A stretch of 60,841 nt of DNA, taken from Eubacteriales bacterium (lineage in GTDB: Bacteria > Bacillota > Clostridia > Oscillospirales > SIG627). Below, in pieces: positions 11,647 to 50,723 of this stretch. The DNA is taken from NCBI GenBank assembly GCA_045531285.1, contig JAZSDT010000083.1, positions 1-60,841 of the forward strand. The letters run 5' to 3'. Made by a program: the position numbers and the translations under genes. Under the pieces are notes generated by a model. It had not been told where the DNA came from, did not search any database, and was given only the letters and a program-made list of their open reading frames with translations. The number at the start of each line of letters is the position of its first letter. Within the stretch, counting starts at the first letter, position 1.

Positions 11647-11730
11647 AGCAATAGCCCCCATTTCGGCTCTATTATAGCAAACAATACGGAATTTTGCAAC
11701 ATCTTTTTATACTCGACTGTATGTTTTTAA

Positions 11731-12662: not shown

Positions 12663-12738
12663 GGGGGTTTAGCTCAGCTGGGAGAGCATCTGCCTTACAA
12701 GCAGAGGGTCACAGGTTCGAGCCCTGTAGTCCCCACCA
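12663..12738 (+). tRNA. tRNA-Val (anticodon UAC), CCA encoded
   Basis: Cloverleaf read by hand: acceptor GGGGGTT/AGTCCCC, D arm GCTCAGCTGGGAGAGC, anticodon loop CTTACAA, T arm ACAGGTTCGAGCCCTGT, 3' ACCA. Confidence 0.95.
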
Positions 12739-17201: not shown

Positions 17202-17300
17202 GCGGTCAGCGACCGCCGGCAATTCTCGCCTATTGCAATCTGTATATGTGCCAAACAAATCAGAACGGCGAGATTGGTTTAATGCAATTTCCCGGTATAT
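17202..17300 (+). repeat. 106-bp repeat family, single unit (locus C), abutting the brnQ start
   Basis: GCGGTCAGCGACCGC hairpin variant, CTCGCC...GGCGAG, GATTGGTTTAATGCAATTTCCCGGTATAT tail. Ends 20 nt before the brnQ ATG. Confidence 0.9.
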
Positions 17301-17319
17301 CCGAAGGGAAGGGTGTAAT

Positions 17320-24314: not shown

Positions 24315-24378
24315 CCTTTAAGTACGCCCACACAAGATAAGACGGCGAGGTTGGTTTAATGTGATTTTTCGGTATTAA
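24278..24378 (+). repeat. 106-bp repeat family, single unit (locus E) overlapping the 3' end of the GH127-like CDS
   Basis: GCGGAGAGTCTCCGC hairpin variant, CTCGCCTATCGTAACC...GACGGCGAGGTTGGTTTAATGTGATTTTTCGGTATTA. Confidence 0.9.
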
Positions 24379-24394
24379 TTTTTTTAAAAAACTA

Positions 24395-24423
24395 TTGACA
24401 AAATCAAAAAACGATGCTATAGT
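24395..24423 (+). promoter_or_regulatory. Sigma-A promoter of T-box leader 1
   Basis: TTGACA (24395-24400), 17-nt spacer, TATAGT (24418-24423). Confidence 0.7.
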
Positions 24424-24429
24424 GTATTC

Positions 24430-24705
24430 ATCGAAATATTTAAAGGCTGTGACGAAGACGGTTTTGTCAGGCATTTTACAGAGAGTTGACGTTTGGTGCG
24501 AGTCAATATTTGACCTACAAGGTAACCTATCACTTCCGAGCCGGAATGCTGAACGTATTCAAGTAAGTGTTCCCGTGATTGCTGCGTAAATGCATAGGAA
24601 TTGTTTGATTCCAAGAGTGGCAGGTCTCCTGCAATTTGAGTGGTACCGCGGATGAGTTAATTTCACCCGTCTCAAAGAAAAAGCTTTGAGACGGGTTTAT
24701 TTTTT
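24430..24705 (+). promoter_or_regulatory. T-box riboswitch leader 1, specifier read as AUC (Ile)
   Basis: Stem I with AGAGA bulge and GUUUGGUG distal loop. Specifier loop ...CCU AUC A|CUUC (24529-24531). T-box sequence UUGAGUGGUACCGCGG (about 24636-24651). Terminator CCCGTCTCAAAG/CTTTGAGACGGG (24666-24695) plus T-run. Confidence 0.85.
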
Positions 24706-24722
24706 ACAAGGAGGAACAGAAA

Positions 24723-26987
24723 ATGTCAACAACTTCAAAAACAAAACTTCTGGAGGTAGCGCGCCGAATTCGTGAAATGCGTGAAATCGAAGGAATAAGC
24801 ATTGAAGAAATGGCAGAAAAGACAGAAGTATCTGTCCAGGATTATCTCGAATACGAAGCAGGAAATGCGGATTTCCCCTTCTCCTTTATACACAAATGCT
24901 CACTTGTTTTCGATATTGAAATTACAGATATTCTCGAAGGTAAGAGTGCTAACCTCCGTTCCTATACCATCACACGTAAGGGCGAAGGACAGGACACGGC
25001 AAAGGAAAACGGCATACAGATTCAGAGTCTTGCTCCCAAGTTCAAGGATAAAATAGCTGAGCCGTATTGGGTAAAGTACGAATACGACTCCGAGCTCCAG
25101 GACAAGCCAATAAACGTTACGACACACTCGGGACAGGAATTTGACTACGTGGTGAGCGGACGCCTCAAGATCCAGGTAGGCGACAACATCGAATATCTCA
25201 GCGAAGGCGACAGCATTTACTACAACAGCTCGGAGCCTCACGGCATGATTGCGGTTGACGGTAAGGAGTGTCTCTTTGTCGCAGTAGTACTTCCCGGTGA
25301 AGCAACCGAGGAAACGACTGTCAGAAAGACAATTTCGGCATCGAGTGCAAAATCAGGTCTTGTCAGTGAAAAATTCATCAAATGCGTTGAGGACGAAAAC
25401 GGTTCTCTTGTTTCCATTGACTTTGAAAACGAGGATAAATTCAATTTCGGCTTTGACGTTGTTGATGCAATTGCCAAGAAGGATCCCGGCAAGCTGGCAA
25501 TGATACACATAGACAAAAACAAGGTTGAAAGAAAGTTCACCTTCAACGATATAAAGCGTCATTCAGCTCAGGCGGCAAACTACTTCAAGTCACTTGGCAT
25601 CAAGAAGGGTGACAGAGTAATGCTGGTGCTCAAGCGCCACTATCAGTTCTGGTTTGCCATTGTGGCTCTCCACAAGCTTGGTGCTGTAGCTATCCCTGCT
25701 ACGAATCTGCTTGTAGCTCACGACTTTGATTACCGCTTTAACGCGGCGGGAGTTTCCGCAATCGTCTGCAGCGCCGACGGTCAGATAGCAGAACAGGTAG
25801 ATATTGCTCAGGCGGCAAGCCCCACTCTCAAGACAAAGATACTCGTAGGCGGCAAGAGAGACGGCTGGCACGACTTTGACGAGGAATATTCACTCTTCTC
25901 AACTCACTACTACAGGACCGAAGAAACCGCTTGCGGAGACGATATGATGCTGATGTTCTTCACATCCGGTACAACGGGTTATCCCAAAATTGCGGCTCAT
26001 TCCTACAAATACGCGCTTGGTCACTATCCCACGGCAAAATACTGGCATATGGTAGAGCCTGACGGACTCCACTTTACCATTTCGGACACAGGCTGGGGCA
26101 AGGCTCTCTGGGGCAAGCTCTACGGCCAGTGGCTGTGTGAGGGTGCTGTATTTACATATGACTTCGACCGCTTTGATGCATCGGAGATACTTCCCATGTT
26201 TGCAAAGTACAACATCAAGACCTTCTGTGCTCCGCCCACTATGCTCCGTATGATGATAAAGGAGGACATCTCAAAGTACGACCTTTCATCCGTAAAGCAT
26301 ATGACAACTGCAGGCGAAGCGCTTAATCCCGAGGTTTACTATCAGTTTGAAAAGCTCACGGGACTTCAGATAATGGAGGGCTTTGGTCAGACAGAGCTTA
26401 CTCTCGCCATCGCAAACCTTGTAGGACGTGACCACAAGGTAGGCTCTATGGGACGTCCCGTACCCCTTTATGACGTTGAGATACTTGACTCCGACGGAAA
26501 GCCGGTGCCCAACGGTGAAAACGGAGAAATCTGTGTAAAGATAGGCGACAAGGTTCCTTGCGGTCTCTTCCTTGGTTACTACGGAAACGAGGAAAAGACA
26601 AAGGAGGTCATGCACGACGGTTACTATCATACAGGCGACGTTGCATGGCGCGACGAGGACGGCTTCTTCTGGTACGTTGGAAGAACGGATGACGTTATCA
26701 AATCATCCGGCTACCGTATCGGTCCATTCGAGATAGAAAGCGTAATTATGGAGCTTCCCTACGTTCTGGAGTGCGGTGTATCTGCCGCTCCCGACGAGGT
26801 AAGAGGACAGGTTGTTAAGGCCAGCATCGTGCTTGTCAAGGGCACCGAGCCAACCGAAGAGCTTAAAAAGGAAATTCAGGAGTACGTAAAGAAACACACT
26901 GCTCCCTACAAATATCCCCGTATAGTCGTATTTAAAGATGAGCTTCCCAAGACAATAAGCGGAAAAATTCAAAGAAATAAGCTATAA
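24723..26987 (+). CDS. Fusion protein: XRE-type HTH + cupin domain + AMP-forming medium/short-chain acyl-CoA synthetase
   Basis: 754 aa. N-terminal HTH REIEGISIEEMAEKTEVSVQDYLEYEAG. Cupin HSGQEFDYVVSGRLKIQVGD...GDSIYYNSSEPHGM. Ligase motifs FFTSGTTGYPK, YHTGD, GRTDDVIKSSGYRIGPFEIE, SGKIQR. Confidence 0.85.
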   Translation: MSTTSKTKLLEVARRIREMREIEGISIEEMAEKTEVSVQDYLEYEAGNADFPFSFIHKCSLVFDIEITDILEGKSANLRSYTITRKGEGQDTAKENGIQIQSLAPKFKDKIAEPYWVKYEYDSELQDKPINVTTHSGQEFDYVVSGRLKIQVGDNIEYLSEGDSIYYNSSEPHGMIAVDGKECLFVAVVLPGEATEETTVRKTISASSAKSGLVSEKFIKCVEDENGSLVSIDFENEDKFNFGFDVVDAIAKKDPGKLAMIHIDKNKVERKFTFNDIKRHSAQAANYFKSLGIKKGDRVMLVLKRHYQFWFAIVALHKLGAVAIPATNLLVAHDFDYRFNAAGVSAIVCSADGQIAEQVDIAQAASPTLKTKILVGGKRDGWHDFDEEYSLFSTHYYRTEETACGDDMMLMFFTSGTTGYPKIAAHSYKYALGHYPTAKYWHMVEPDGLHFTISDTGWGKALWGKLYGQWLCEGAVFTYDFDRFDASEILPMFAKYNIKTFCAPPTMLRMMIKEDISKYDLSSVKHMTTAGEALNPEVYYQFEKLTGLQIMEGFGQTELTLAIANLVGRDHKVGSMGRPVPLYDVEILDSDGKPVPNGENGEICVKIGDKVPCGLFLGYYGNEEKTKEVMHDGYYHTGDVAWRDEDGFFWYVGRTDDVIKSSGYRIGPFEIESVIMELPYVLECGVSAAPDEVRGQVVKASIVLVKGTEPTEELKKEIQEYVKKHTAPYKYPRIVVFKDELPKTISGKIQRNKL

Positions 26988-27001
26988 TTTGCAAAAAAAT
27001 A

Positions 27002-27030
27002 TTGACAAACCTCATCTGATATGATATACT
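27002..27030 (+). promoter_or_regulatory. Sigma-A promoter of T-box leader 2
   Basis: TTGACA (27002-27007), 17-nt spacer, TATACT (27025-27030). Confidence 0.7.
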
Positions 27031-27034
27031 TCTT

Positions 27035-27307
27035 ATATTCAAGGAAAGGCTTTGACGAAGAGTATACCAGCACATCTATGCTCAGAGAAACGGCGTTTGG
27101 TGTAAGCCGTAGATAGACGTTGGTGTTTGTAGCTTCCGAGCCGAGAGGAAGAAAACGTTTGCCAGTAGACCCTCTCCGTGATTGCTGCGTAAATGCATAG
27201 GAATTGATTGATTCCAAGAGAGGCGGTTAGTCCGCAACTTGAGTGGTACCGCGGGCGTTGTTATTATGCTCGTCTCAAGGATCATATCTTTGGGACGAGC
27301 TTTTATT
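27035..27307 (+). promoter_or_regulatory. T-box riboswitch leader 2, specifier read as GUA (Val)
   Basis: Stem I with CAGAGA bulge and GUUUGGUG distal loop. Specifier loop ...GUUU GUA G|CUUC (27129-27131). T-box CUUGAGUGGUACCGCGG. Terminator GCTCGTCTCAA../..TTGGGACGAGC (27268-27300) plus TTTTATT. Confidence 0.85.
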
Positions 27308-27333
27308 GTCCCGATACAAAACCGGAGGAAATA

Positions 27334-29616
27334 ATGCAACAGATTACAGGTCTTGATTTTAAAATCAAGGAAATGGCAGGGCGTATACGAGAGCTTCGTG
27401 AAATCGTAGGACTTACTACCGAAGAAATGTCAAAGAAAACGGACGTATCCGTACAGGAGTACATAAGCTGTGAAAAGGGAGAAAGCGACCTTACCTTCGC
27501 TTTTATCTACCGTTGCGCTCTTGCACTCAACGTTGACGTTACGGATATTATCGAAGGTCACAGCCCTAAGCTTAAAACCTATACCGTAACAAGAAACGGG
27601 CTTGGTCAGAAAATCGAGCAGGCTCACGGTATGACGTATTACAGTCTTGCTTCCGAGTTCAAAAACAGAATTGCGGAGCCTCTTTACGTACGTGCCGCAT
27701 ACAATGACGATAACAGCGATATTGAGCTTACCACACACGCCGGTCAGGAATGTGACATTATCATTGAAGGTCACCTCAAGGTACAGGTTGGTGAGCACAC
27801 CGAGGTTCTCGGCCCGGGTGACAGTATCTACTATAACAGCTCGGAACCTCACGGTATGATTGCCGTAAACGGTCACGACTGTCTTTTCTACGCAATAGTT
27901 CTTAATCCCACAGGTGAATCCATTCCCGAGCTCATCCCCCATCCCACTGTCACTACCGAAAGACAGCTTCCCCGTGACACAGAGGATAGAGTATACCGCA
28001 ATTTCATTGATACCGAAGAGGATGAAAACGGCACACCTACTTCCATAAAATTCAAGAATACCGAAAAATTCAACTTTGCATTCGACATTGTTGATGCCAT
28101 TGCCGACAAGTCGCCCGACAAACTGGCAATGCTTCACATAGATGTAAACAAGAACGAAAGACGCTTCACTTTCAAGGATATGAAGAAGATGTCTGCTCAG
28201 GCGGCAAACTACTTCAAGTCACTTGGTATCAAGAAGGGCGACAGAGTTATGCTCGTTCTCAAGCGTCACTATCAGTTCTGGATAGCAATGCTTGGTCTTC
28301 ACAAGCTGGGTGCTATTGCGGTGCTTGCGACAAATCAGCTTCAGGAGCATGATTTTGAATATCGCTTTAATGCCGCGGGAATTTCTGCAATCCTCTGCAC
28401 AGCAGACGGAGATACAGCGCATCAGGTTGAGCTGGCAATTGAAAACTCCCCCACAATGAAAACCAAGATAATAGTTGGAAAGGACCGTGAAGGATGGCGC
28501 AACTTTGACGAGGAGCGTTCACTCTTCTCCACACATTTCAACAGAACAGAGGATACTCCCTGCGGAGACGACCTGATGTTGATGTTCTTCACGTCGGGAA
28601 CAACGGGTTATCCCAAGATTGCGGCACACTCCTGCAAGTATGCACTCGGTCATTTCCATACGGCGAAATACTGGCACACAGTTGACCCCGACGGACTTCA
28701 CTTTACCATTTCCGACACGGGATGGGCTAAGTCCATGTGGGGCAAGTTCTACGGACAGTGGGTATGCGAGGCGGCAACCTTCGTTTATGACTTTGACCGC
28801 TTTGACGCTGCCGATATTCTGCCAATGTTTGCAAAATATCAGATAACAACCTTCTGTGCTCCTCCCACAATGCTTCGTATGATGATAAAAGAGGACATTT
28901 CAAAATACGACCTCTCTTCCGTTAAGCATATGACAACAGCAGGTGAAGCACTGAACCCCGAAGTATATAACCAATTTGAAAGGCTGACAGGACTTCAGAT
29001 ACTTGAAGGCTTCGGTCAGACAGAAAGCACTATGATAATAGGCAACCTTGTAGGAACGTCACACAAGGTCGGCTCTATGGGTAAGCCTGCTCCCATTTAC
29101 GACGTGGAGCTTCTTGATGCAGACGGTAATCCCGTCAAGGACGGTGAAAACGGAGAAATCTGCGTAAACGTTAAGAACGGCGCTCCTTGCGGTCTGTTCA
29201 CGGGTTATTATCTCAACGAGGAAAAAACACGCGAGGTATGGCACGACGGATATTACCACACAGGTGACGTTGCATGGCGTGATGAGGACGGCTTCTACTG
29301 GTACGTCAGCCGTGTTGACGACGTTATCAAGTCATCGGGCTACCGTATCGGTCCTTTCGAAATAGAAAGCGTAATAATGGAGCTTCCCTACGTTCTGGAG
29401 TGCGGTGTATCTGCGGCTCCCGACGAGGTAAGAGGACAGGTAGTCAAGGCGGGCATCGTGCTTGTTAGGGGAACCGAGCCTACTGAAGAGCTTAAAAAGG
29501 AGATACAGAACTACGTTAAGAGCAGAACTGCTCCCTACAAGTATCCCAGAATCGTAGTGTTCAAGGATTCTCTTCCCAAGACTGTCAGCGGAAAGATCCA
29601 GAGGAACAAATTATAA
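27334..29616 (+). CDS. Fusion protein paralog: XRE-type HTH + cupin + AMP-forming acyl-CoA synthetase
   Basis: 760 aa from the ATG at 27334 (GGAGG RBS; the ORF-track start at 27208 lies inside the riboswitch). Same architecture and motifs as 24723..26987. The ligase part is highly similar. Confidence 0.85.
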   Translation: MQQITGLDFKIKEMAGRIRELREIVGLTTEEMSKKTDVSVQEYISCEKGESDLTFAFIYRCALALNVDVTDIIEGHSPKLKTYTVTRNGLGQKIEQAHGMTYYSLASEFKNRIAEPLYVRAAYNDDNSDIELTTHAGQECDIIIEGHLKVQVGEHTEVLGPGDSIYYNSSEPHGMIAVNGHDCLFYAIVLNPTGESIPELIPHPTVTTERQLPRDTEDRVYRNFIDTEEDENGTPTSIKFKNTEKFNFAFDIVDAIADKSPDKLAMLHIDVNKNERRFTFKDMKKMSAQAANYFKSLGIKKGDRVMLVLKRHYQFWIAMLGLHKLGAIAVLATNQLQEHDFEYRFNAAGISAILCTADGDTAHQVELAIENSPTMKTKIIVGKDREGWRNFDEERSLFSTHFNRTEDTPCGDDLMLMFFTSGTTGYPKIAAHSCKYALGHFHTAKYWHTVDPDGLHFTISDTGWAKSMWGKFYGQWVCEAATFVYDFDRFDAADILPMFAKYQITTFCAPPTMLRMMIKEDISKYDLSSVKHMTTAGEALNPEVYNQFERLTGLQILEGFGQTESTMIIGNLVGTSHKVGSMGKPAPIYDVELLDADGNPVKDGENGEICVNVKNGAPCGLFTGYYLNEEKTREVWHDGYYHTGDVAWRDEDGFYWYVSRVDDVIKSSGYRIGPFEIESVIMELPYVLECGVSAAPDEVRGQVVKAGIVLVRGTEPTEELKKEIQNYVKSRTAPYKYPRIVVFKDSLPKTVSGKIQRNKL

Positions 29617-30278
29617 TGAAATATAAAAGAATAACGCTTCTTTCAGGTCATTACGGAAGCGGAAAGACAAATATAGCGGTCAACATGGCATTTGAGCTGA
29701 AGCAACAGGTTGAAAGCGTTGTGGTTGCCGATATGGATATAGTCAATCCCTATTTTCGTACAAAGGACAGTCAAAAGGAGTTTGATGAGGCAGGAATAAA
29801 GCTTATTGCATCCGCCTTTGCAGGCTCTAACGTAGACCTGCCCTCTCTTCCCCAAGAGATGTACTCACTGACAGATGACCGCACAAGCCACTGCATACTT
29901 GATATAGGTGGTGATGAACGCGGAGCGTTGGTGCTTGGAAGATATGCGCCTATGATAAAGGAAGAAAACGATTACGAAATGCTTTTCGTTTTCAATGCCT
30001 GCCGTCCCTTGACACCGGATGCCGACTCGGCACTGGAGGTTATGAGAGAAATTGAATGGGCAGGAAAGATACCCTTCACAGGTATCATAAACAACTCAAA
30101 CATCGGAGAGGAAACAACTCCCGAGACAGTTTTGTCATCAATGGAAAAAGCAAACCAGCTGAGTCAAAAAGCCGGTATTCCATTGGTTATGACCTCGGTT
30201 CATTGGAAGATATTTCCCTCCCTTGAAAATAAAATACCAAATCTATTCCCATTAAAACTTCAAACAAAAATCATGTAA
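29616..30278 (+). CDS. P-loop NTPase (SIMIBI class; CooC/MinD/G3E-like ATP/GTP-binding protein)
   Basis: Walker A LLSGHYGSGKTN, Walker-B-like ILDIGGD. 220 aa. Start overlaps the ligase stop (TAATG). Confidence 0.6.
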   Translation: MKYKRITLLSGHYGSGKTNIAVNMAFELKQQVESVVVADMDIVNPYFRTKDSQKEFDEAGIKLIASAFAGSNVDLPSLPQEMYSLTDDRTSHCILDIGGDERGALVLGRYAPMIKEENDYEMLFVFNACRPLTPDADSALEVMREIEWAGKIPFTGIINNSNIGEETTPETVLSSMEKANQLSQKAGIPLVMTSVHWKIFPSLENKIPNLFPLKLQTKIM

Positions 30279-30290
30279 GGAGTGTAAAAA

Positions 30291-30497
30291 ATGCCTAAGC
30301 TTACTTTTAAAACAGACAACTGTAAGGGCTGTGGACTTTGCGTAGATGCTTGTCCCAAGGGCGTTCTTGCAATTGCCAAGGAAAAAATCAACAAAAAAGG
30401 TCATCACCCTGTTGAAGCGGTGAAAGAGGACGCTTGTATCGGTTGTACCTTCTGTGCTACCATGTGTCCCGACTGTATAATCAAGATTGAGAAATAG
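30291..30497 (+). CDS. 2-oxoacid:ferredoxin oxidoreductase delta subunit (2x[4Fe-4S] ferredoxin)
   Basis: CKGCGLCVDACP and CIGCTFCATMCP cluster motifs. 68 aa. Confidence 0.85.
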   Translation: MPKLTFKTDNCKGCGLCVDACPKGVLAIAKEKINKKGHHPVEAVKEDACIGCTFCATMCPDCIIKIEK

Positions 30498-30512
30498 AAA
30501 GGTCGTGAAATA

Positions 30513-31580
30513 ATGGCAGATAAAGTATTGATGAAAGGTAACGAAGCCATTGCCGAAGCCGCAATCGTTGCAGGCTGCCGCCACTACTTCGGTTACCCTA
30601 TTACTCCCCAAACTGAAATTGCCGCTTACATGGCTAAGAGAATGCCTAAAATCGGCGGTTGCTTCCTTCAGGCTGAAAGCGAAATTGCCGCTATCAACAT
30701 GGTATACGGCGTTGCTTCCTGCGGTAAGCGTGTTATGACATCATCCTCAAGCCCCGGAATCTCACTTAAGGGCGAAGGACTTTCCTACCTTGCAGGTGCG
30801 GACCTTCCCTCCCTTGTTGTAAACGTACAGAGAGGCGGCCCCGGTCTGGGCGGTATTCAGCCCTCGCAGTCAGACTACTTCCAGGCTACAAAGGGCGGAG
30901 CACACGGTGATTTCCACATGATAGTTCTTGCTCCCGCTTCCGTTCAGGAAATGGCTGACCTCACAGTTCACGGCTTTGACCTTGCAGACAAGTACCGTAT
31001 GACTTCCATGATACTTGCCGACGGTACAATGGGTCAGATGATGGAGCCTGTTTCTCTTGACCTTGACGTTAAGCCCATGCCCGAAAAGCCTTGGGCTACA
31101 GTGGGAACAAAGCTCGAAAGATTCCACAATATCACAAACTCACTTTCTCTTGTTCCCGAAGAGCTTGAACAGCTCAACTTCAAGAGATACGAGCGTTATG
31201 CTGAAATAGAAAAGAATGAAGTTATGTACGAAGAGTATATGATGGAGGATGCAGAGATCTGTATCGCCGCATTCGGCATTGCTTCACGTGTTGCCAAGAA
31301 CGCTATCGTTGAGGCTCGTGCTCAGGGTATCAAGGTAGGTCTTATACGTCCTATCACCCTTTGGCCCTTCCCCAAGGCTCCCTTCCTCAAGGCGACCGAA
31401 AAGGTACATTCATTTATTTCTGTTGAGCTTTCTATGGGTCAGATGATAGAGGACGTACGTCTTGCTACAGAGTGCCGCCGTCCCGTGACACTTGTAAACC
31501 GTGCAGGCGGTATGATCCCCTCACCCGAACAGATCCTCGAAGCAATTAAAACTGCTCACAAAAACGGAGGTGCAAAATAA
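30513..31580 (+). CDS. 2-oxoacid:ferredoxin oxidoreductase alpha subunit (VorB-like, ketoisovalerate-type)
   Basis: KVLMKGNEAIAEAAIVAGCRHYFGYPITPQTEI is the N-terminal signature of the POR/VOR/KOR alpha family. 355 aa. Confidence 0.85.
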   Translation: MADKVLMKGNEAIAEAAIVAGCRHYFGYPITPQTEIAAYMAKRMPKIGGCFLQAESEIAAINMVYGVASCGKRVMTSSSSPGISLKGEGLSYLAGADLPSLVVNVQRGGPGLGGIQPSQSDYFQATKGGAHGDFHMIVLAPASVQEMADLTVHGFDLADKYRMTSMILADGTMGQMMEPVSLDLDVKPMPEKPWATVGTKLERFHNITNSLSLVPEELEQLNFKRYERYAEIEKNEVMYEEYMMEDAEICIAAFGIASRVAKNAIVEARAQGIKVGLIRPITLWPFPKAPFLKATEKVHSFISVELSMGQMIEDVRLATECRRPVTLVNRAGGMIPSPEQILEAIKTAHKNGGAK

Positions 31581-32347
31581 TGGTAGTATTTGACAAACCC
31601 CATGCACTTGCCGACCTTCCCATGCACTACTGCCCCGGCTGTACACACGGTATTATTCACCGTCTTGTTGCCGAGTGTCTTGATGAACTTGGAATTGAAG
31701 GAAGAACCATCGGTATCGCACCCGTTGGTTGCTCGGTTATGGCATATAATTATTTCAACTGCGATATGATTGAAGCGGCTCACGGACGTGCTCCTGCCAT
31801 TGCTACAGGTGTTAAGCGTGCTGACCCCGAAAATCACATAGTATTTACATATCAGGGCGACGGTGACCTTGCCTCTATTGGTATGGCAGAAACCGTACAC
31901 GCAGCAGCGCGTAACGAGAACATCACCGTTATCTTTGTAAACAATGCAATCTACGGTATGACTGGCGGTCAGATGGCTCCTACCTCACTTCCCGGTCAGG
32001 TTACTCAGACCTCTCCCTACGGACGTGACACCAACCACTGCGGATTCCCAATCAAGGTATGCGAAATGCTCTCTGAGCTTGACGGACCTGAATATCTGGA
32101 AAGAGTTGCCGTGAACAACGTGAAGAATGTTAAGGCTGCTAAGAAGGCTATTAAGAAGGCGTTTGAAAACCAGATAAACAATAAGGGCTTCTCACTCATC
32201 GAGGTTATTTCAAGCTGTCCTACAAACTGGGGTATGACACCTCAAAAGGCACTTGAATGGGTTGCAGATAAAATGATTCCCTACTATCCTCTCGGTGTAT
32301 ATAAGGATAGAACAGCGGGCATTGTAAAGGGGGATAAAAATGACTAA
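31580..32347 (+). CDS. 2-oxoacid:ferredoxin oxidoreductase beta subunit (TPP-binding)
   Basis: YCPGCTHG, GDGD...NNAIYGMTGGQ TPP/Mg motif. Start overlaps the alpha stop. Confidence 0.85.
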   Translation: MVVFDKPHALADLPMHYCPGCTHGIIHRLVAECLDELGIEGRTIGIAPVGCSVMAYNYFNCDMIEAAHGRAPAIATGVKRADPENHIVFTYQGDGDLASIGMAETVHAAARNENITVIFVNNAIYGMTGGQMAPTSLPGQVTQTSPYGRDTNHCGFPIKVCEMLSELDGPEYLERVAVNNVKNVKAAKKAIKKAFENQINNKGFSLIEVISSCPTNWGMTPQKALEWVADKMIPYYPLGVYKDRTAGIVKGDKND

Positions 32348-32870
32348 TCAGTACGTTTTTGCAGGATTTGGCGGTCAGGGTATCCTTTTCGCAGGTAAGC
32401 TCCTTGCATACAAGGGTCTGACAGAGGACAAGCAGGTTTCATGGCTTCCCTCCTACGGTCCCGAAATGAGAGGCGGTACGGCAAGCTGTTCCGTTATCAT
32501 CAGCGACACACCTGTAGGTTCTCCCATTGTTTCCAATCCCGACATACTCATCGCTATGAACCTTCCTTCTCTTGACAAGTACGAGAATCTTGTAAAGGCA
32601 GGCGGTATGATATTCTACGATTCTTCTCTCATTGAAAGAGAAGTTAAAAGAGATGACGTAAAGGCGTTCCCCATTCCCGCAACAAAGCTTGCAGACGAGA
32701 ACGGAACTCCCACACTTGCAAACATGATAATCATGGGTAAGGTGCTCAAGGAGACAGGCGACTTCACAGACGAAGGCGTTCTTGCAGCTCTCAAGAAGGT
32801 AATTTCCGCTAAGCGTGCGGATATGCTTGACGTAAACCTTAACGCTATGAAACTTGGACGCGATTATTAA
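32340..32870 (+). CDS. 2-oxoacid:ferredoxin oxidoreductase gamma subunit
   Basis: [17 protein letters not shown]...[11 protein letters not shown] is typical of gamma subunits. 8-nt overlap with beta. Confidence 0.85.
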
Positions 32871-32886
32871 TTGGAGGCGAATTTAA

Positions 32887-33951
32887 ATGGAAATTTCAAT
32901 CACTCGCGCAAAGGAGCTCAAGGCTAAGCCTGACAGTTCCACACTTGGCTTCGGTAAAATATTCACCGACCATATGTTCATAATGGACTATTCGCAGGAG
33001 AAAGGCTGGCACGATGCAAGAATCGTTCCCTTCGGCCCCTTCCCCATTCATCCCGCATCAACCGTTCTTCACTACGGCTCGGAAATCTTTGAAGGACTCA
33101 AGGCATACAGAATCGCCGACGGCTCGGTACAGCTCTTCAGACCTATGGAGAACATCCGCCGTCTTAACAGCTCGGCTGAGCGTCTGTGTCTCCCCGAGAT
33201 TCCCGAGGACCTTGCTCTTGAGGTACTCACAAAGTTCGTTGAATTTGAAAAGGACTGGACACCTGCTGCAGAGGGTACTTCTCTCTACATCCGTCCCTTC
33301 CTCTTCGGTAACGACGAGACACTTGGTGTACACGCAGTACACAATGCAACCTTTATGATAATCCTCTCTCCTGTAGGAAGCTACTATAAGGAAGGTATTA
33401 ACCCTGTTAAGATCATGATTGAAGCTGATGACGTAAGAGCTGTAAGAGGCGGTACAGGTTACACCAAGTGCGGCGGTAACTATGCGGCAAGTAACAGAGC
33501 AGGTCAGAAGGCTGAAGCTCAGGGATACGCTCAGGTACTCTGGCTTGACGGTGTTGAAAGAAAGTATATTGAAGAAGTTGGCGCCATGAACGTTATGTTC
33601 AAAATCAACGGCGAGATCGTTACTCCCATGCTTTCAGGCTCTATCCTTCCCGGTATCACAAGAAAGTCTTGCATTGAAGTTCTCAAGTCCGAGGGCTACA
33701 AGGTAAGCGAGAGACTTCTCAGCGTTGATGAGCTTGCAGAGGCTCTTGAAAACGGAACTCTTGAAGAGGCTTGGGGAACAGGTACAGCAGCAGTTGTATC
33801 GCCCATTGGCGAGCTTGCTTACAAGGGCAAGAAGTTCATCATCAACGAAGGTAAGATCGGCGAGGTCACTCAGCATCTTTACGATACTCTCACAGGCATC
33901 CAGTGGGGTAAGATCGAAGACAAGTTCAACTGGACCTACAAGCTTAATTAA
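32887..33951 (+). CDS. ilvE: Branched-chain amino acid aminotransferase (fold type IV)
   Basis: 354 aa. FGKIFTDHMF, LHYGSEIFEGLKAYR, GGTGYTKCGGNYAAS, ILPGITR and GTAAVVSPI motifs of IlvE type II. Confidence 0.9.
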   Translation: MEISITRAKELKAKPDSSTLGFGKIFTDHMFIMDYSQEKGWHDARIVPFGPFPIHPASTVLHYGSEIFEGLKAYRIADGSVQLFRPMENIRRLNSSAERLCLPEIPEDLALEVLTKFVEFEKDWTPAAEGTSLYIRPFLFGNDETLGVHAVHNATFMIILSPVGSYYKEGINPVKIMIEADDVRAVRGGTGYTKCGGNYAASNRAGQKAEAQGYAQVLWLDGVERKYIEEVGAMNVMFKINGEIVTPMLSGSILPGITRKSCIEVLKSEGYKVSERLLSVDELAEALENGTLEEAWGTGTAAVVSPIGELAYKGKKFIINEGKIGEVTQHLYDTLTGIQWGKIEDKFNWTYKLN

Positions 33952-34038: not shown

Positions 34039-35148
34039 TTATAAAAATATACCTTTTTCTTTACAATCGTTAAAAATGGAAAAGCGATTTATTTCATTTG
34101 TCAACAGGCTATCATATTTCTTTATATAGGCTGAAAGCGCCTCTGTATCTATTTGACGAGGTCTTTGTCCTACACGTTTCAAAAAATTCCCGTAAAAGAT
34201 TTTATCAAGAGTGTCCTCGTCCAACGCCATTCCTTGCACATCCATTCCTGCCATTTTGAAGGAATCATCTGTCAAAAGGAATCGATAAACACAAGGTATC
34301 GAATAACCTCCTCCTCTTGTCGAATAATCGGAACCAAACATTATTCTGTCAGAATATTTGAGGAAAAACTCTCTCCAATCCGTTATGTTTTCACTCATAT
34401 AGTGAAAATTACTCGGGCCTGGTGTAATATCTATGCACACGTTAGGATAATCGTCAAGAAGCTTTTCAAGGCGTTCGCGCTGCGTTGTCATATAGAACAT
34501 ATGTGCAAACGTTACCTTAAGTCTCGGATATCGTCTTAATATTTCATAAACCTCACCGTAAACCTCTTCTCTGTCGGGATTCTCGGAATTTGCAAATTTC
34601 ACGTCATTCCAATGCTCAATCGGGTCATTTACGTGCCACAGAATATGTATTTGCTCTTCTTCGATCCTTTTAAACAGCGGTGCAAATCCCTTGTCAGTAA
34701 AAATAGCTTTCAACTCCATTTTTGCCTTTGGATGAGTTTCAAGCATTTTTACTCCGTCAAAGCCGATTTTCATCAATTCGTCAAGCTGTGTATCAGGCTC
34801 AAATCCTTTTTTAAACGGAAAGCTCACAGGTCTGTCGGGATATACAAGCCCACCATGTGCAAAAACCTTTTTGTTTTCCTCCTTCAACAGTGCAGCCATA
34901 ATATTTTGTGCAGCATCTCTGCCTATATACGGAATACACGCAATGTTGACATACTCATAGTTGCGGGAATCAATAAAAGCGTTTACCGATTCTTTATAGT
35001 TATGGGATACGGGTGCATCCTTCCAACCGAATCGTTCTATTTCCTTGAATGGAGTTATAAACTGTCGGTAGTCCTCGTGATTCAAATCCGTCGAATCCAT
35101 CCAATTTGAAATATGAATATGTGAATCTATGACCTTAATTGTCTTCAT
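34039..35148 (-). CDS. Amidohydrolase-family (metal-dependent TIM-barrel hydrolase) protein
   Basis: VIDSHIHISNW N-terminal HxH, WHVNDP, and FGSDYS near the C-terminus. 369 aa. Confidence 0.65.
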   Translation of the reverse strand: MKTIKVIDSHIHISNWMDSTDLNHEDYRQFITPFKEIERFGWKDAPVSHNYKESVNAFIDSRNYEYVNIACIPYIGRDAAQNIMAALLKEENKKVFAHGGLVYPDRPVSFPFKKGFEPDTQLDELMKIGFDGVKMLETHPKAKMELKAIFTDKGFAPLFKRIEEEQIHILWHVNDPIEHWNDVKFANSENPDREEVYGEVYEILRRYPRLKVTFAHMFYMTTQRERLEKLLDDYPNVCIDITPGPSNFHYMSENITDWREFFLKYSDRIMFGSDYSTRGGGYSIPCVYRFLLTDDSFKMAGMDVQGMALDEDTLDKIFYGNFLKRVGQRPRQIDTEALSAYIKKYDSLLTNEINRFSIFNDCKEKGIFL

Positions 35149-36008: not shown

Positions 36009-36037
36009 TTGACAAATCAATTTCATCGTGGTATAAT
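36009..36037 (+). promoter_or_regulatory. Sigma-A promoter of T-box leader 3
   Basis: TTGACA (36009-36014), 17-nt spacer, TATAAT (36032-36037). Confidence 0.75.
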
Positions 36038-36043
36038 CTATCA

Positions 36044-36324
36044 TCATCAAAAATAGAACGAAATGCATTGAAGGAATTATCGCTTTTCCCTATTCCGTCA
36101 AAGAGAGCCGAGTTTGGTGTGAGTCGGTACGGTAAGCTAAAGTGAGTCTCGTTCCGGAGCAGGGTCGCCCAACGTGCTATGCACTGCGTAAGCGATCACG
36201 GTTTGTCCCGTTACCTTGACAGAAAGCTTGATTGAGCTTTACAGAGTGACTGCATAAGCAGTAATTCGGGGTGGTACCGCGAAGTATTTTCGTCCCCTTA
36301 GCCGAAAGGCTGAGGGGTTTTTTG
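36044..36324 (+). promoter_or_regulatory. T-box riboswitch leader 3, specifier read as CUC (Leu)
   Basis: Stem I with AAGAGAG bulge and GUUUGGUG distal loop. Specifier loop ...GAGU CUC G|UUCC (36148-36150). T-box AUUCGGGGUGGUACCGCGAAG. Terminator CCCCTTAGCC-GAAA-GGCTGAGGGG (36294-36317) plus TTTTTT. Confidence 0.85.
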
Positions 36325-36354
36325 TTGCATAAATTCAGAAAGGGAAAAAGAAAA

Positions 36355-37743
36355 ATGAAAAAAATCCAAATCACAGACATCACACTTAAAAAACTGGCGC
36401 AAGAGCGTAGCGTTAACCTTCTTTTCCGTGACAAGACCGCTATCGCCGCATGTGCTGACAGGCTTGGAGTTGATGCTATTGAACTTGCACCCATAAAGAA
36501 CGTGCGTGAGGACACTATCATTTATAAGACAATATCCCAAAATATCACCAACTGTACCGTAGCTATCCCCGTAGGATTTACTGCTCAGGACGTTGCGACA
36601 GCATGGGAATGCGTAAAGGACGCCATTCACCCCAGACTTCAAATAGAGCTTCCCATATCCACTGTTCAAATGGAATATACCTATCATCTTAAGGCTGACA
36701 AAATGATTGCCAAGATAGGTGAGCTGGTAGAGGAAGCAGTAAAATACTGCAATGACGTTGAATTCGTTGCTCTTGACGCTACAAGAGCGGACACAGACTT
36801 CCTTGTTGCCGCAGTAAAAGAAGCAGAAACAAAGGGCGCAAATATCATAACGGTTTGCGATGATGCGGGAGTTTCTCTTCCGGAAGAAATTGCAGCACTT
36901 GTAAAGCTTGTAAAAGATGCTGTTGATATCTACGTATACGCTCAGGTATCCGACAAGCTCAGTATGGCTGTTTCCTCTGCAGTATCCGCAATCAACGCAG
37001 GTGCAGAAGGTCTCAAGTGTGCTATGGCAGGCAATGAAGCTCTTTTGGTAGGTGCTTTCTCTGACACTGTAAGAGCAAGAGGAGATGCTATCGACGTTTC
37101 TACGTCTCTTAAGGACACCAAAATTCACGCAAGCATCGATGACCTGCTTACTTCTATAAAGCACGAAGCTTATACCTCGGAAGAACAGGTAAGCGAAAAG
37201 AAAAACATTCTTCTCGATAAGGACAGCACCATATCACAGGTATCTCAGGCGGCTCAGGTATTGGGCTATGACCTTTCGGACAGCGACTGCGGAAACGTGC
37301 ACAAGGCACTTCTTCAGGTATGCGAAAAGAAGGGCTCTGTAGGATCAAAGGAGTTTGAAGCACTTATTGCAAGCTCTGCAATGCAGGCTCCCTCCACATA
37401 TCACCTTGAGGGCTACACTACAAATTCTTCAAATCTTACACCCTCTATGTCTCAAGTAACCCTCAGATGCGGTGACGAGATACTTTCAGGCGTAAGCACA
37501 GGTGACGGTCCCATCGATTCAGCCTTCCGCGCTATCGAGCAGAGTATAGGTTATCACTACGAGCTTGACGACTTCCAGGTACAGGCGGTTACAGAGGGCA
37601 AGGAGGCTCTCGGCTCTGCACTGGTAAGACTCCGTAACAACGGCAAGCTCTATTCAGGTAACGGCATCTCCACAGATATTGTTGCCGCAAGTATAAGAGC
37701 ATACATCAACGCACTTAACAAGATCGTATTCGAGGAGGAATAA
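36355..37743 (+). CDS. 2-isopropylmalate/citramalate-synthase-like protein with degenerate active site but intact LeuA-type C-terminal regulatory domain
   Basis: Collinear with LeuA over the whole length, but DTTLRDGEQ is DITLKKLAQ and the HxH metal motif (H-C-H-D-D) is AQVSD. The C-terminal STGDGPIDSAFRAIEQSI...ALVRLRNNGKLYSGNGISTDIVAASIRAYINALNK is well conserved. ATG at 36355 lies downstream of the riboswitch terminator. Confidence 0.75.
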   Translation: MKKIQITDITLKKLAQERSVNLLFRDKTAIAACADRLGVDAIELAPIKNVREDTIIYKTISQNITNCTVAIPVGFTAQDVATAWECVKDAIHPRLQIELPISTVQMEYTYHLKADKMIAKIGELVEEAVKYCNDVEFVALDATRADTDFLVAAVKEAETKGANIITVCDDAGVSLPEEIAALVKLVKDAVDIYVYAQVSDKLSMAVSSAVSAINAGAEGLKCAMAGNEALLVGAFSDTVRARGDAIDVSTSLKDTKIHASIDDLLTSIKHEAYTSEEQVSEKKNILLDKDSTISQVSQAAQVLGYDLSDSDCGNVHKALLQVCEKKGSVGSKEFEALIASSAMQAPSTYHLEGYTTNSSNLTPSMSQVTLRCGDEILSGVSTGDGPIDSAFRAIEQSIGYHYELDDFQVQAVTEGKEALGSALVRLRNNGKLYSGNGISTDIVAASIRAYINALNKIVFEEE

Positions 37744-37744
37744 A

Positions 37745-40198
37745 ATGAAGCTGGTATTTTCCACCGAAAACGTAAGCAGAGCATCCTTTATTGACCTTTG
37801 CCGCTACGCTTACGATTACGGTTATTCGGGATTTGAGATATACGATGCCATAAAGGAAAGAAAACAGCATTATGACAGCATTCTCAGAAGCGGAAACACT
37901 TCGGATGCCAAACGAAAGCTGTTAAACCGTAATCTCACAGTTCCCGCTCTCACTTTCCCCTCCCCTATAGACAGTAGCGAAGTATCCTCCGAGGATATAA
38001 CAAAATATATCGACATGGCTGCAACGGCAGGTGTGGAAAACGTTATTGTATGCGTAAAAGAAGATATTTCTCACGATACCCTTTCTGCCAAGCTTAGCGA
38101 TGCACTCAAGGCTGCTGCAAAATCCGATATACAGATTTTGTTTGAAACGTGGGGCATTCTTGCTGACACGGAAAAGGTACTTGAGGTAATCAATTTCCTG
38201 TCATCCGCCTCGGTAGGCGTAGCATGGAACGTACGTGAAACCTTTTTCAAAGCAAGCGAAAGTGCCGAAACGACCATAAAAAATCTTGGCGCTTATATAA
38301 AATACACCCGTTTGGGCGATATGAAGGACAATAAGACGGTTCTCATCGGAGAAGGTGAGCTTCCTGTTGGCAATTTCATAAACGCGCTGTCATCACTGAA
38401 CTTTGACGGATGTATCTGCGTTGCATGGAACGAGGAAATAAACGATGCTGACATCGTATTAACTCATTTTTCAAACTATATTGCAAATCTCAACCGTAAG
38501 AAATTAAAAGCCGACAGCTCTTATTACAACAGAGCAAAAACAGGTACTTTCCCTTGGAAGAAATATGATATTCTCGATTATACCTTCTCGGACGTACTTG
38601 ATGCAATGGTAAAGAATTACCCCGACCAGTATGCCTTCAAGTATACGACTCTTGATTATACGAGAACCTACACCGAATTCCGCAGAGACGTTGACGAGTG
38701 TGCGGCGGCACTGATATCACTGGGCGTAAAGGCAGGCGATCACGTTGCTATTTGGGCGACAAACGTTCCTGCATGGTATATCACCTTCTGGGCAACAACA
38801 AAGATCGGCGCAGTACTTGTTACTGTCAACACAGCGTACAAAATACACGAAATAGAGTATCTGCTCAAGCAGTCTGACACTCATACTCTTGTAATGATAG
38901 AGGACTGCAAGGACATAAACTACAAGGAAATAATTGAGGAGCTCTGTCCCGAGCTTCAGCACCTTGAACCGGGTCAGCCTATTTATTCAAAGAGTCTTCC
39001 CTTCCTCCGAAACGTTGTTACCGTAGGCTTTTCAATGAAGGGCTGTCTCACTTGGGAGGAAATGCTCAAGCGTTCTGAGCTTGTTCCAAAAGAAGAGGTA
39101 CGCAGACGTGCATCTCTGGTAAATCCCGACGACGTATGCAATATGCAGTACACCTCGGGTACTACAGGCTTCCCCAAGGGAGTTATGCTTACCCATCGCA
39201 ATATCGTAAACAACGGTAAGACGATCGGAGACAGAATGGACTTGTCCACTGCCGACAGAATGATGATTCAAGTACCTATGTTCCATTGCTTCGGAATGGT
39301 GCTTTCTATGACATCTATGATGACACACGGCGGTACTCTTTGTCCTATGCCTTATTTCTCCCCCAAATCATCTCTTGCTTGTATAAACGATGAGCACATC
39401 ACCTGCTTCAACGGTGTGCCTACAATGTTTATCGCGCTGTTCAATCATTCGGATTTTGCAAAAACCGACTTCTCTTATATGAGAACGGGCATTATGGCAG
39501 GTGCCAACTGTCCTGCAGATCTTATGCGCCGTGCGGCAGACGAAATGAATATGCGTGAAATAATATCCGTTTACGGTCAGACCGAGGCATCTCCGGGATG
39601 TACGATGGGCGAAGTAAACGAGGATATCGACCACAGAGTTGAGACAGTAGGAAGCGCCTTCCCCGGAGTTGAGTGTAAAATTATTGACCCTGAGACAGGC
39701 GACGAGCTTCCCGACGGTGAATCCGGTGAGTTTGTGGCACGCGGCTTTAACATTATGAAGGGTTACTATAAGATGCCCGAGGCTACTGCACAGACTATTG
39801 ACGCAGACGGATGGCTTCATTCAGGTGACATTTGCTGCCGTACGCCCGACGGCTACTACAAGGTAACAGGACGTCTTAAGGATATGATAATCCGAGGCGG
39901 TGAAAACCTTTATCCCCGTGAAATTGAGGAGTTCTATCTTACCAATCCCAAGGTACGTGACGTACAGGTGGTAGGTGTTCCCGACGAAAGATACGGTGAA
40001 GAATGCTGTGCGTGGATAATTCTTCACAAGGGCGAGACTGCCGACGAAAACGAAATGAAGGAATACGGAAACGCTTCTATCGCACGTCACAAGGTTCCCC
40101 GTTACTTCCTGTTCGTAGATGAGTTCCCCATGAATGCGGCAGGAAAAATTCTTAAATATAAAATGAGAGATATTTCAAAAGAAAAATTAGGTCTTTAA
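37745..40198 (+). CDS. Fusion protein: xylose-isomerase-like TIM-barrel domain + AMP-forming acyl-CoA synthetase (FadD/YngI-like)
   Basis: 817 aa. The first ~260 aa have the TIM-barrel pattern (GFEIY...ILFETWG...VAWNVRE...CVAWNEE). The remainder carries YTSGTTGFPKGVMLTHRN, GQTE, HSGD, GRLKDMIIRGGENLYPREIE, AGKILK. Starts 1 nt after the upstream stop. Confidence 0.8.
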   Translation: MKLVFSTENVSRASFIDLCRYAYDYGYSGFEIYDAIKERKQHYDSILRSGNTSDAKRKLLNRNLTVPALTFPSPIDSSEVSSEDITKYIDMAATAGVENVIVCVKEDISHDTLSAKLSDALKAAAKSDIQILFETWGILADTEKVLEVINFLSSASVGVAWNVRETFFKASESAETTIKNLGAYIKYTRLGDMKDNKTVLIGEGELPVGNFINALSSLNFDGCICVAWNEEINDADIVLTHFSNYIANLNRKKLKADSSYYNRAKTGTFPWKKYDILDYTFSDVLDAMVKNYPDQYAFKYTTLDYTRTYTEFRRDVDECAAALISLGVKAGDHVAIWATNVPAWYITFWATTKIGAVLVTVNTAYKIHEIEYLLKQSDTHTLVMIEDCKDINYKEIIEELCPELQHLEPGQPIYSKSLPFLRNVVTVGFSMKGCLTWEEMLKRSELVPKEEVRRRASLVNPDDVCNMQYTSGTTGFPKGVMLTHRNIVNNGKTIGDRMDLSTADRMMIQVPMFHCFGMVLSMTSMMTHGGTLCPMPYFSPKSSLACINDEHITCFNGVPTMFIALFNHSDFAKTDFSYMRTGIMAGANCPADLMRRAADEMNMREIISVYGQTEASPGCTMGEVNEDIDHRVETVGSAFPGVECKIIDPETGDELPDGESGEFVARGFNIMKGYYKMPEATAQTIDADGWLHSGDICCRTPDGYYKVTGRLKDMIIRGGENLYPREIEEFYLTNPKVRDVQVVGVPDERYGEECCAWIILHKGETADENEMKEYGNASIARHKVPRYFLFVDEFPMNAAGKILKYKMRDISKEKLGL

Positions 40199-40240: not shown

Positions 40241-40245
40241 ACAAC

Positions 40246-40275
40246 AAAAAGCACTTCATTAATGAAGTGCTTTTT
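40246..40275. terminator. Bidirectional intrinsic terminator
   Basis: AAAAA-GCACTTCATT/AATGAAGTGC-TTTTT between convergent genes. Confidence 0.85.
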
Positions 40276-40279
40276 GTTA

Positions 40280-49730: not shown

Positions 49731-49745
49731 AAATCGTCCTTTCGT

Positions 49746-50633: not shown

Positions 50634-50723
50634 AAAATCCTCCCAATAAAAAACATTCACGTGTATTTTACTCCATAGTGCAAAAAAAGTCAAGTACCCT
50701 TAAAGAATTTAGTTAGCAAAACT

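Follow-up and report, generated by a model that had tools for sequence, protein, structure and literature searches.

A 60,841-nt stretch of DNA from an Eubacteriales bacterium of the Oscillospirales lineage SIG627 (contig JAZSDT010000083.1 of assembly GCA_045531285.1; hereafter, the window) carries a gene module that probably directs a three-armed salvage biosynthesis of the branched-chain amino acids (BCAAs), in which a branched short-chain acid would be converted to its acyl-CoA, then to the 2-oxoacid and finally to the amino acid. Three leaders of the T-box type, with specifier codons for Ile, Val and Leu, each stand upstream of one of three acyl-CoA ligase genes. The ligases would feed a common 2-oxoacid:ferredoxin oxidoreductase (OFOR), related to ketoisovalerate oxidoreductase (VOR), and the aminotransferase IlvE.

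In the mechanism that we propose, uncharged tRNA-Ile, tRNA-Val or tRNA-Leu would favour the antiterminator in the matching leader (AUC, GUA or CUC, respectively), and transcription from that leader's own strong promoter would then continue into an AMP-forming ligase. The substrates of the ligases would be 2-methylbutyrate in the Ile arm, isobutyrate in the Val arm and isovalerate in the Leu arm; the four-subunit VorB-type OFOR would carboxylate the acyl-CoAs reductively, using reduced ferredoxin and CO2, and IlvE would turn the 2-oxoacids so formed into Ile, Val and Leu by transamination. The RNA elements with their specifiers, the protein families, the operon structure and the pairing of specifier and ligase across genomes are seen in the sequences themselves; we infer which acids are used, which way the oxidoreductase runs and that the genes are induced in vivo. 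The biosynthetic direction is indicated by the combination of AMP-forming activation, starvation-type switches that match the ligase paralogues one to one, and the coupling of the ligases to VOR and IlvE. An earlier reading of part of the window, made from its letters alone (the original prediction), had proposed the same direction, and it gains comparative support here from the link between specifier and paralogue, from a cluster that travels between genomes, from the likeness of the ligases to a characterised archaeal enzyme, Macs, and from their AMP-forming type.

T-box leaders and the conservation of their pairing with ligases

All the elements of the gene order proposed in the original prediction (promoter, Ile T-box, lig1, promoter, Val T-box, lig2, P-loop NTPase, the delta, alpha, beta and gamma subunits of the OFOR, and ilvE) lie where it had placed them (Table 1), and our map of open reading frames (ORFs) likewise puts all of these genes on the + strand. 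From 27334 onward the spacing is as tight as had been described: going from lig2 to ilvE, successive genes first overlap by 1 nt, are then 12 and 15 nt apart, overlap again by 1 and by 8 nt, and are finally 16 nt apart. A third leader had only been hinted at (35.9-36.4 kb). There is indeed a Leu T-box at this site, and we add to the module the full Leu-gated arm that it heads (36009-40198), which encodes a LeuA-like protein and ligase 3.

Each leader follows a near-consensus promoter and ends in an intrinsic terminator. When compared with the Rfam T-box model (RF00230, gathering score 93 bits), the Ile and Leu leaders score above the threshold whereas the Val leader falls below it (Table 1), so that the model endorses two of the three at its own cut-off. 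The Val leader covers positions 1-219 of RF00230 with an E value of 4.9e-18 in a local covariance-model search, and orthologous Val leaders in other genomes reach 89.1, 97.2 and 128.4 bits. The Ile and Val specificities given in the original prediction agree with the codons AUC and GUA, which, like CUC in the third leader, can be read directly from the sequence, and the context of the Stem I specifier loop is AUC-A-CUUC-C-GAGC in the Ile leader, GUA-G-CUUC-C-GAGC in the Val leader and CUC-G-UUCC-G-GAGC in the Leu leader. In all three, the specifier codon is followed by the 3' strand of the base helix and the GA motif, and in related loci the codons are conserved although the bases beside them are not. 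The conserved T-box sequence GTGGTACCGCG, with the UGGU bulge, is also present in the three leaders, where the antiterminator is predicted to compete with the intrinsic terminator; some related Leu leaders carry an ACCGTG variant and were found by the Rfam model. In addition, a tRNA-Val(UAC) gene at 12663-12738 (+), outside the operon and roughly 14 kb before the Val leader, provides the exact Watson-Crick complement of GUA, and judging from this match its product is likely to be the effector of that leader.

Nearly every lig1 leader of the related loci is preceded by a counterpart of promoter P1. An A/T-rich TTTTnAAAAAA tract borders the -35 element of P1, P2 and P3 on its upstream side (for example at 24375-24394), and it is seen in related loci as well. 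On average, its best distance from the CodY consensus is 4.35, compared with 5.6 in shuffled sequences, and the consensus is perfect in one locus (L052) and has one mismatch in another (L043). We take the tract to be an UP-like element with a weak CodY resemblance and do not count it as evidence of regulation.

A scan for the ligase in a collection with one genome per species gave at least 583 ligase-encoding stretches, with no more than two per genome, and the comparisons reported here use the best 80 of these (loci labelled L0xx), covering ±10 kb of each contig. All 80 loci belong to metagenome-assembled genomes of uncultured gut, rumen or faecal Clostridia, with the family labels Oscillospiraceae/Ruminococcaceae, Acutalibacteraceae or Christensenellaceae. 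We read the specifiers by leader alignment and by Rfam-anchored reading; the lig2 leader of L029 and the leader of L041 have no assigned codon. Odd specifiers from a pattern-based reading (GGA, AAC, GCA, GAG, AGC and GGC) were mostly resolved to ATC, GTA/GTC or CTC by alignment or Rfam anchoring.

All of the roughly 70 lig1 leaders that can be aligned have the ATC specifier, while the base that follows it varies between A, C and G. Nearly all of the roughly 50 lig2 leaders have GTA or the synonymous GTC, the latter in five loci (L031, L035, L036, L040 and L042), and in at least 23 loci the leader ahead of the LeuA-like gene has CTC (once CTG). Thus, the same amino acid is kept despite a synonymous change of codon, which matches the prediction of selection on the specifier. 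The order lig1-lig2-P-loop-delta-alpha-beta-gamma-ilvE is also kept wherever the contig extends that far, with a minority of loci having ilvE before the P-loop gene: 26 of the 48 loci that reach the VOR genes have exactly the gene order of the window, and in about a dozen others the sole difference is that ilvE stands elsewhere or is missing. The block that runs from the two ligases through the P-loop and VOR genes to ilvE moves as one unit between unrelated flanking genes and, since clustering of the flanking ORFs gave no other widely conserved family, the module is self-contained. Because both the pairing and the cluster are kept across the 80 loci, the arrangement is not due to chance.

Table 1. 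Coordinates of the regulatory elements and genes of the module within the window.
Feature	Position	Strand	Details and evidence
Promoter P1	24395-24423	+	TTGACA-17-TATAGT, extended -10 TG; near-consensus sigma-70
T-box leader, Ile	24440-24677	+	Specifier AUC at 24529-24531; RF00230, 94.6 bits
Intrinsic terminator, Ile leader	24665-24696		With T-run
Ligase 1 (lig1)	24723-26987	+	XRE-HTH + cupin + AMP-forming acyl-CoA synthetase, 754 aa; Pfam
Promoter P2	27002-27030	+	TTGACA-17-TATACT, TG; near-consensus sigma-70
T-box leader, Val	27043-27280	+	Specifier GUA at 27129-27131; RF00230, 81.2 bits
Intrinsic terminator, Val leader	27268-27300		With T-run
Ligase 2 (lig2)	27334-29616	+	HTH + cupin + acyl-CoA synthetase, 760 aa; Pfam
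P-loop NTPase	29616-30278	+	SIMIBI-class, Walker A GHYGSGKT; Pfam CbiA/ParA
OFOR delta subunit	30291-30497	+	2x[4Fe-4S] ferredoxin, 68 aa; Pfam/NCBIfam
OFOR alpha subunit	30513-31580	+	VorB-type; POR_N + PFOR_II; NF005507
OFOR beta subunit	31580-32347	+	TPP-binding; TPP_enzyme_C
OFOR gamma subunit	32340-32870	+	POR domain
IlvE	32887-33951	+	Branched-chain amino acid aminotransferase, type II (class IV); NF009897
Promoter P3	36009-36037	+	TTGACA-17-TATAAT, TG; near-consensus sigma-70
T-box leader, Leu	36059-36300	+	Specifier CUC at 36148-36150; RF00230, 102.8 bits
Intrinsic terminator, Leu leader	36294-36317		With T-run
LeuA-like protein	36355-37743	+	462 aa, HMGL-like TIM barrel + LeuA_dimer; Pfam
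Ligase 3	37745-40198	+	817 aa; xylose-isomerase-like TIM barrel (PF01261, aa 1-275; 37745-38569) + AMP-forming acyl-CoA ligase
Terminator after ligase 3	40243-40278

Predicted ligase substrates and the proposed direction of the route

Both ligases of the Ile and Val arms contain HTH_19/HTH_3, Cupin_2, AMP-binding and AMP-binding_C domains (the last two with Pfam E values of 5e-63 and 1e-20), and lig2 is 70% identical to its paralogue lig1. The closest solved relative of lig1 is Macs from Methanosarcina acetivorans (PDB 3ETC; E 2.5e-182, about 515 residues aligned), with which the catalytic domains of the ligases are about 55% identical. Macs adenylates C3-C8 acids broadly, but its preferred substrate is 2-methylbutyrate, and it is preferentially with 2-methylbutyrate that it completes the CoA-thioester step (PMC10455477). 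Macs differs from the window ligases in having no N-terminal XRE-HTH and cupin module (about 200 aa and a short linker); the window ligases, unlike Macs, are Ile- and Val-gated paralogues linked to VOR and IlvE.

A comparison of 63 Ile-gated with 50 Val-gated ligases revealed only three conserved positions in the catalytic domain that discriminate the two clades, all of them within one short segment: GWGKALWG...EG in the Ile clade (G459/L462/G474) and GWAKSMWG...EA in the Val clade (A465/M468/A480). The first position is G in all 63 Ile-clade ligases and A in all 50 Val-clade ligases; Macs has G, and the pocket-region motif TAKYW...GWGK is common to Macs and the Ile-clade ligase. The GWGK/GWAK signature also holds where T-boxes between the genes are absent, and single-ligase modules are of the GWGK type. 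In acetyl-CoA synthetase, the residue after this Trp presumably lines the acyl pocket. A change from Gly to Ala would narrow such a pocket, and this would fit the smaller C4 acid isobutyrate. From these sequence features, and from the amino acid that the T-box before each gene specifies, lig1 is predicted to be a 2-methylbutyrate-CoA ligase and lig2 an isobutyrate-CoA ligase.

One or more of the arms could use other substrates. For example, the Ile-gated ligase could convert propionate to propionyl-CoA, from which 2-oxobutyrate would enter the conventional Ile pathway, and the differing pockets of the two clades would then suit some other pair of acids. Synthesis of 2-oxobutyrate from propionate has been reported in some anaerobes. 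The range of acids that Macs adenylates (PMC10455477) would allow for this, as would the closest solved relatives of the OFOR, which are not specific for branched-chain 2-oxoacids (BCKAs). However, we find it quite unlikely: the thioester step of Macs prefers 2-methylbutyrate (PMC10455477), the Ile clade has the Gly of Macs at the discriminating position, and the presence of IlvE in the operon fits a one-step conversion of the carboxylation product. Moreover, the propionate route needs ilvBNCD, which are neither present in the window, where leuBCD are also absent, nor conserved in the flanks of the related loci.

The best NCBIfam family for both ligases is MbcS (NF047394), the methylbutyryl-CoA synthetase of S. 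aureus. Like the enzymes proposed here, MbcS turns short branched acids into CoA thioesters at the expense of ATP; unlike the window ligases, it feeds lipid synthesis, and the papers that we found describe no T-box gating of it and no link to VOR or IlvE. It is reported to support branched-chain fatty-acid synthesis from exogenous acids (PMC10026030, PMC11167679). One could therefore speculate that the module supplies primers for branched-chain lipids, with MbcS-like ligases making acyl-CoA starters, the T-boxes firing as BCAA-derived primers run short, and VOR and IlvE merely co-located. Since acyl-CoA is a branch point, both fates could coexist. As the explanation of the module, though, lipid priming appears unlikely. 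The one-to-one match of T-box and paralogue and the translational coupling to VOR and IlvE, seen in dozens of genomes, fit a supply of amino acids better, and a cell starved of BCAAs would waste effort by switching on a BCAA aminotransferase and a BCKA oxidoreductase if these worked in the direction of acyl-CoA. In addition, the clustering of flanking ORFs gave no fatty-acid synthesis genes conserved nearby.

As for the steps that follow activation, the four OFOR subunits are encoded together: alpha (POR_N/PFOR_II), beta, which binds thiamine pyrophosphate (TPP), gamma (POR) and delta (2x[4Fe-4S]). The enzyme thus resembles VOR, a four-subunit TPP/[4Fe-4S] OFOR; its alpha subunit passes the NCBIfam VorB model NF005507 (536 bits, cut-off 399), and the reaction proposed for it is the classical one. 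It differs from known VOR in that a dedicated P-loop NTPase gene precedes it, and in that its specificity is a prediction. Given that the other subunits and the solved relatives are uninformative, specificity for BCKAs would rest on the VorB subfamily match and on context. IlvE is above the equivalog cut-offs of both NF009897 (482 against 307 bits) and TIGR01123 (404 against 250 bits).

Both IlvE and OFORs are reversible, and gut Clostridia make branched acids from BCAAs, as reported for example in a preprint (bioRxiv 10.1101/401489). The same enzymes could accordingly be imagined to run in the catabolic direction, from BCAA to 2-oxoacid through IlvE, to acyl-CoA through VOR and on to the branched acid. 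This is highly improbable, however, as AMP-forming ligases conserve no energy when going from acyl-CoA to acid, and the module contains no phosphotransacylase/kinase or ADP-forming synthetase. Furthermore, a T-box is switched on by uncharged cognate tRNA, the wrong cue for a pathway that breaks this amino acid down.

Leu arm, HTH-cupin modules and the P-loop protein

The LeuA-like protein encoded at the start of the Leu arm has KKLAQ in place of the RDGEQ motif and QVSDK in place of HCHDD, and the HxH metal ligands are gone. Across the 35 proteins compared (the window protein and 34 orthologues), the RDGEQ and HxH motifs are without exception either missing or variable, and the LeuA equivalog scores of the LeuA-like protein are all under the cut-off. 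With its catalytic motif and metal ligands lost, it is not an isopropylmalate synthase. The allosteric LeuA_dimer domain is kept (PF08502, 106 bits, E 1.5e-30), and NCBI names members of the family 'hypothetical' or 'regulatory domain-containing protein'. The LeuA-like gene and the gene of ligase 3, with its TIM domain, are always adjacent, a few nucleotides apart, and in 38 of the 80 loci the pair lies within 10 kb of the lig1/lig2/VOR cluster. Ligase 3 is only 25% identical to lig1, and its TIM domain has no informative relative in NCBIfam or PDB. It is a predicted isovalerate-CoA ligase, as far as its sequence and setting indicate, and the dead LeuA-like protein may be a pseudoenzyme that serves as its Leu-sensing partner.

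The ligases of the other two arms carry a different additional region. Their HTH-cupin module contains 15 clade-discriminating residues, compared with 3 in the catalytic domain, and its nearest non-fused relatives are many stand-alone XRE-cupin proteins of about 185 aa, with 33-40% identity. A split version is found at L081:5001-7227 (also in L082-L084), where a gene for a 184-aa HTH-cupin protein (39% identical) is followed, after 20 nt, by that of an unfused Macs-like ligase; this ligase is 52% identical to lig1, of the GWAK type and without a T-box. Judged by sequence, the split pair is a Rosetta-stone link to the fusion. XRE-cupin local repressors and BirA-type enzyme-repressor fusions have the same HTH_19/HTH_3 and Cupin_2 N-terminal layout as the ligases. 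In contrast to stand-alone XRE-cupin regulators, the module is here fused to an enzyme; DNA binding by it is putative, and no conserved palindrome or operator for the HTH domains was found at P1 or P2 across the loci.

It is tempting to speculate that control has two layers, in which tRNA charging would act on transcription while the binding of end product or substrate by a protein sensor, one per ligase, would act on the ATP-consuming first step. This idea, which we put forward tentatively and with some doubt, is suggested by the fused HTH-cupin module with its 15 clade residues against 3, and by the dead LeuA, which keeps the TIM scaffold and the leucine-binding LeuA_dimer and is an obligate partner of ligase 3. 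If it were true, feedback on the salvage pathway would depend on a pseudoenzyme derived from the classical Leu route and co-opted as a sensor. A comparable arrangement lies directly upstream of the Leu arm of one related locus (L039:5-4629), where an aromatic cluster encodes an IOR-type oxidoreductase (TPP+Fer4 and POR subunits), a PaaK-like ligase, an ACT-domain protein and a class I aminotransferase. As in the window, an acid-CoA ligase, an OFOR, an aminotransferase and a small-molecule-binding partner are found together, whereas the enzyme families are others (IOR, PaaK-like and class I aminotransferase). The analogy counts in favour of the proposed route and suggests a general design in which an acid-CoA ligase is accompanied by a ligand-binding partner.

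The P-loop gene is directly upstream of the delta gene in every mapped locus that reaches the OFOR, and 47 of the sources compared have a member of its family. Sequence searches, an AF2 model (pLDDT 87) and Foldseek, whose best matches are SRP GTPases (TM about 0.57), all point to a generic SIMIBI fold and nothing narrower, and public annotation calls the protein hypothetical or ParA. That it could be an accessory of the OFOR, or a maturation factor for its Fe-S clusters or TPP, is a guess.

Weight of the evidence, origin of the gene order and biological meaning

Several points weigh against a salvage biosynthesis of BCAAs as we propose it. The support for it is comparative throughout. The two HTH-cupin ligases reach 437 and 431 bits, far under the MbcS equivalog cut-off of 850, and are therefore relatives but no orthologues of MbcS, and no close relative of the Leu-arm ligase has been characterised. 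In the OFOR, the beta, gamma and delta subunits reach no curated cut-off or substrate-specific model in NCBIfam, and the closest solved alpha chains are those of a generic 2-ketoacid enzyme (1YD7) and of OGOR, which acts on 2-oxoglutarate. The route explains no role for the HTH-cupin domains, the P-loop protein, the dead LeuA or the TIM domain. Moreover, T-boxes are missing between the ligases in three loci (L028, L032 and L034) and before the Leu arm in L036, which keeps one before ligase 2. Finally, VOR and ilvE of this genome stand behind the Val leader alone. In L028, L032, L034 and L036, the genes of the LeuA-like protein, the TIM-ligase, ligase 1 and ligase 2 lie in tandem with very short gaps, and regulation in these four loci must differ from that of the window.

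The position of VOR and ilvE, which the original prediction had singled out as a puzzle, has a plausible historical answer, because in the single-ligase relatives (L044, L063 and L069) the Ile T-box and its ligase lie directly before the P-loop and VOR genes, with an optional ilvE in between. The Ile and Val leaders of the window also have a near-identical stretch of about 50 nt in common, in the Stem II/III region. From these sequences, the window order most likely arose by tandem duplication of the leader and ligase unit in an ancestral operon of Ile T-box, ligase and VOR, after which the VOR-proximal copy would have acquired a Val specifier and a GWAK pocket. P2 would be a strong independent promoter, and transcripts from P1 would run into the Val leader; no terminator was found between the stop codon of lig1 (26987) and P2.

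A precedent is also at hand, since in B. subtilis a Leu-only T-box controls the shared ilv-leu enzymes. In both systems a T-box with terminator and antiterminator gates BCAA genes, and enzymes common to the three BCAAs stand behind a leader for one amino acid, as VOR and ilvE stand behind the Val leader. The two differ in the route, which here is reductive carboxylation and in B. subtilis is the acetolactate/isopropylmalate pathway, and in the number of leaders, as here there are three (Ile, Val and Leu), one per entry enzyme.

Other genes are found around the module. A BrnQ-type branched-chain amino acid carrier is encoded 6 kb upstream, at 17233-18597 (TIGR00796, 288 against 243 bits), and no T-box was detected before this gene. 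An Amidohydro_2 gene accompanies the module in 17 loci, mostly right beside the TIM-ligase (for example L039:8832-9629 and L043:8801-9601); the homologue in the window, at 34039-35148 (-) and convergent with ilvE, is distant (23% identity). Three loci have a CN_hydrolase, omega-amidase-like, between lig2 and a divergent ilvE (L026:14861-15649, L028:7857-8639 and L031:7716-8510), and we could speculate that such a protein pulls glutamine-dependent transamination toward amino-acid synthesis; its presence there is in keeping with the proposed route. Farther away, an AMP-forming ligase (572 aa) lies in the 48012-50693 (-) region, beside a protein whose C-terminus resembles 2-oxoacid dehydrogenase acyltransferases, with no visible link to the module, and two tyrosine recombinase genes (phage integrase family) are found at the start of the contig (277-2763). 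An SLH-domain protein with a weak cohesin match (30 bits) is encoded at 10525-11661 (-). The host appears to belong to the fibre-degrading, cellulosome-type Clostridia of rumen or gut, and the fibre-degrading guild of these habitats comprises the classical requirers of branched acids.

The synthesis of Ile, Val and Leu from 2-methylbutyrate, isobutyrate and isovalerate by reductive carboxylation has been known for decades in rumen and gut anaerobes. Thus, neither reductive carboxylation of branched acids nor any of the component families is new; as far as we could find, what is new is the T-box-labelled gene module. For rumen anaerobes, the conversions of 2-methylbutyrate to Ile and of isovalerate to Leu are established physiology (PMC10658910). 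The original prediction knew of no described module in which each branch has its own amino-acid-specific T-box, and our search of the literature agrees with it, having found no published description of a T-box-labelled branched-acid module within a searchable range that leaves two classic T-box surveys outside its reach. In the literature searched, no paper joins T-box and isobutyrate, and none combines all four of the terms 'T-box', 'tRNA', 'ferredoxin oxidoreductase' and 'branched-chain'.

The genes for an old pathway, and above all those for acid activation, are here laid out as a module, for which we found no earlier layout. The T-box specifiers act as built-in labels that tell which ligase paralogue serves which amino acid, and the three-residue clade signature (GWGK against GWAK, with their neighbours) provides a hypothesis of substrate specificity. 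In addition, the module brings to light a set of uncharacterised partners: the pair of dead LeuA and TIM-ligase, the HTH-cupin fusions and the P-loop NTPase linked to the OFOR. Beyond the window, the finding bears on the cross-feeding of branched acids between bacteria, on the feeding of branched volatile fatty acids to ruminants and on the prediction of auxotrophies for culturing.

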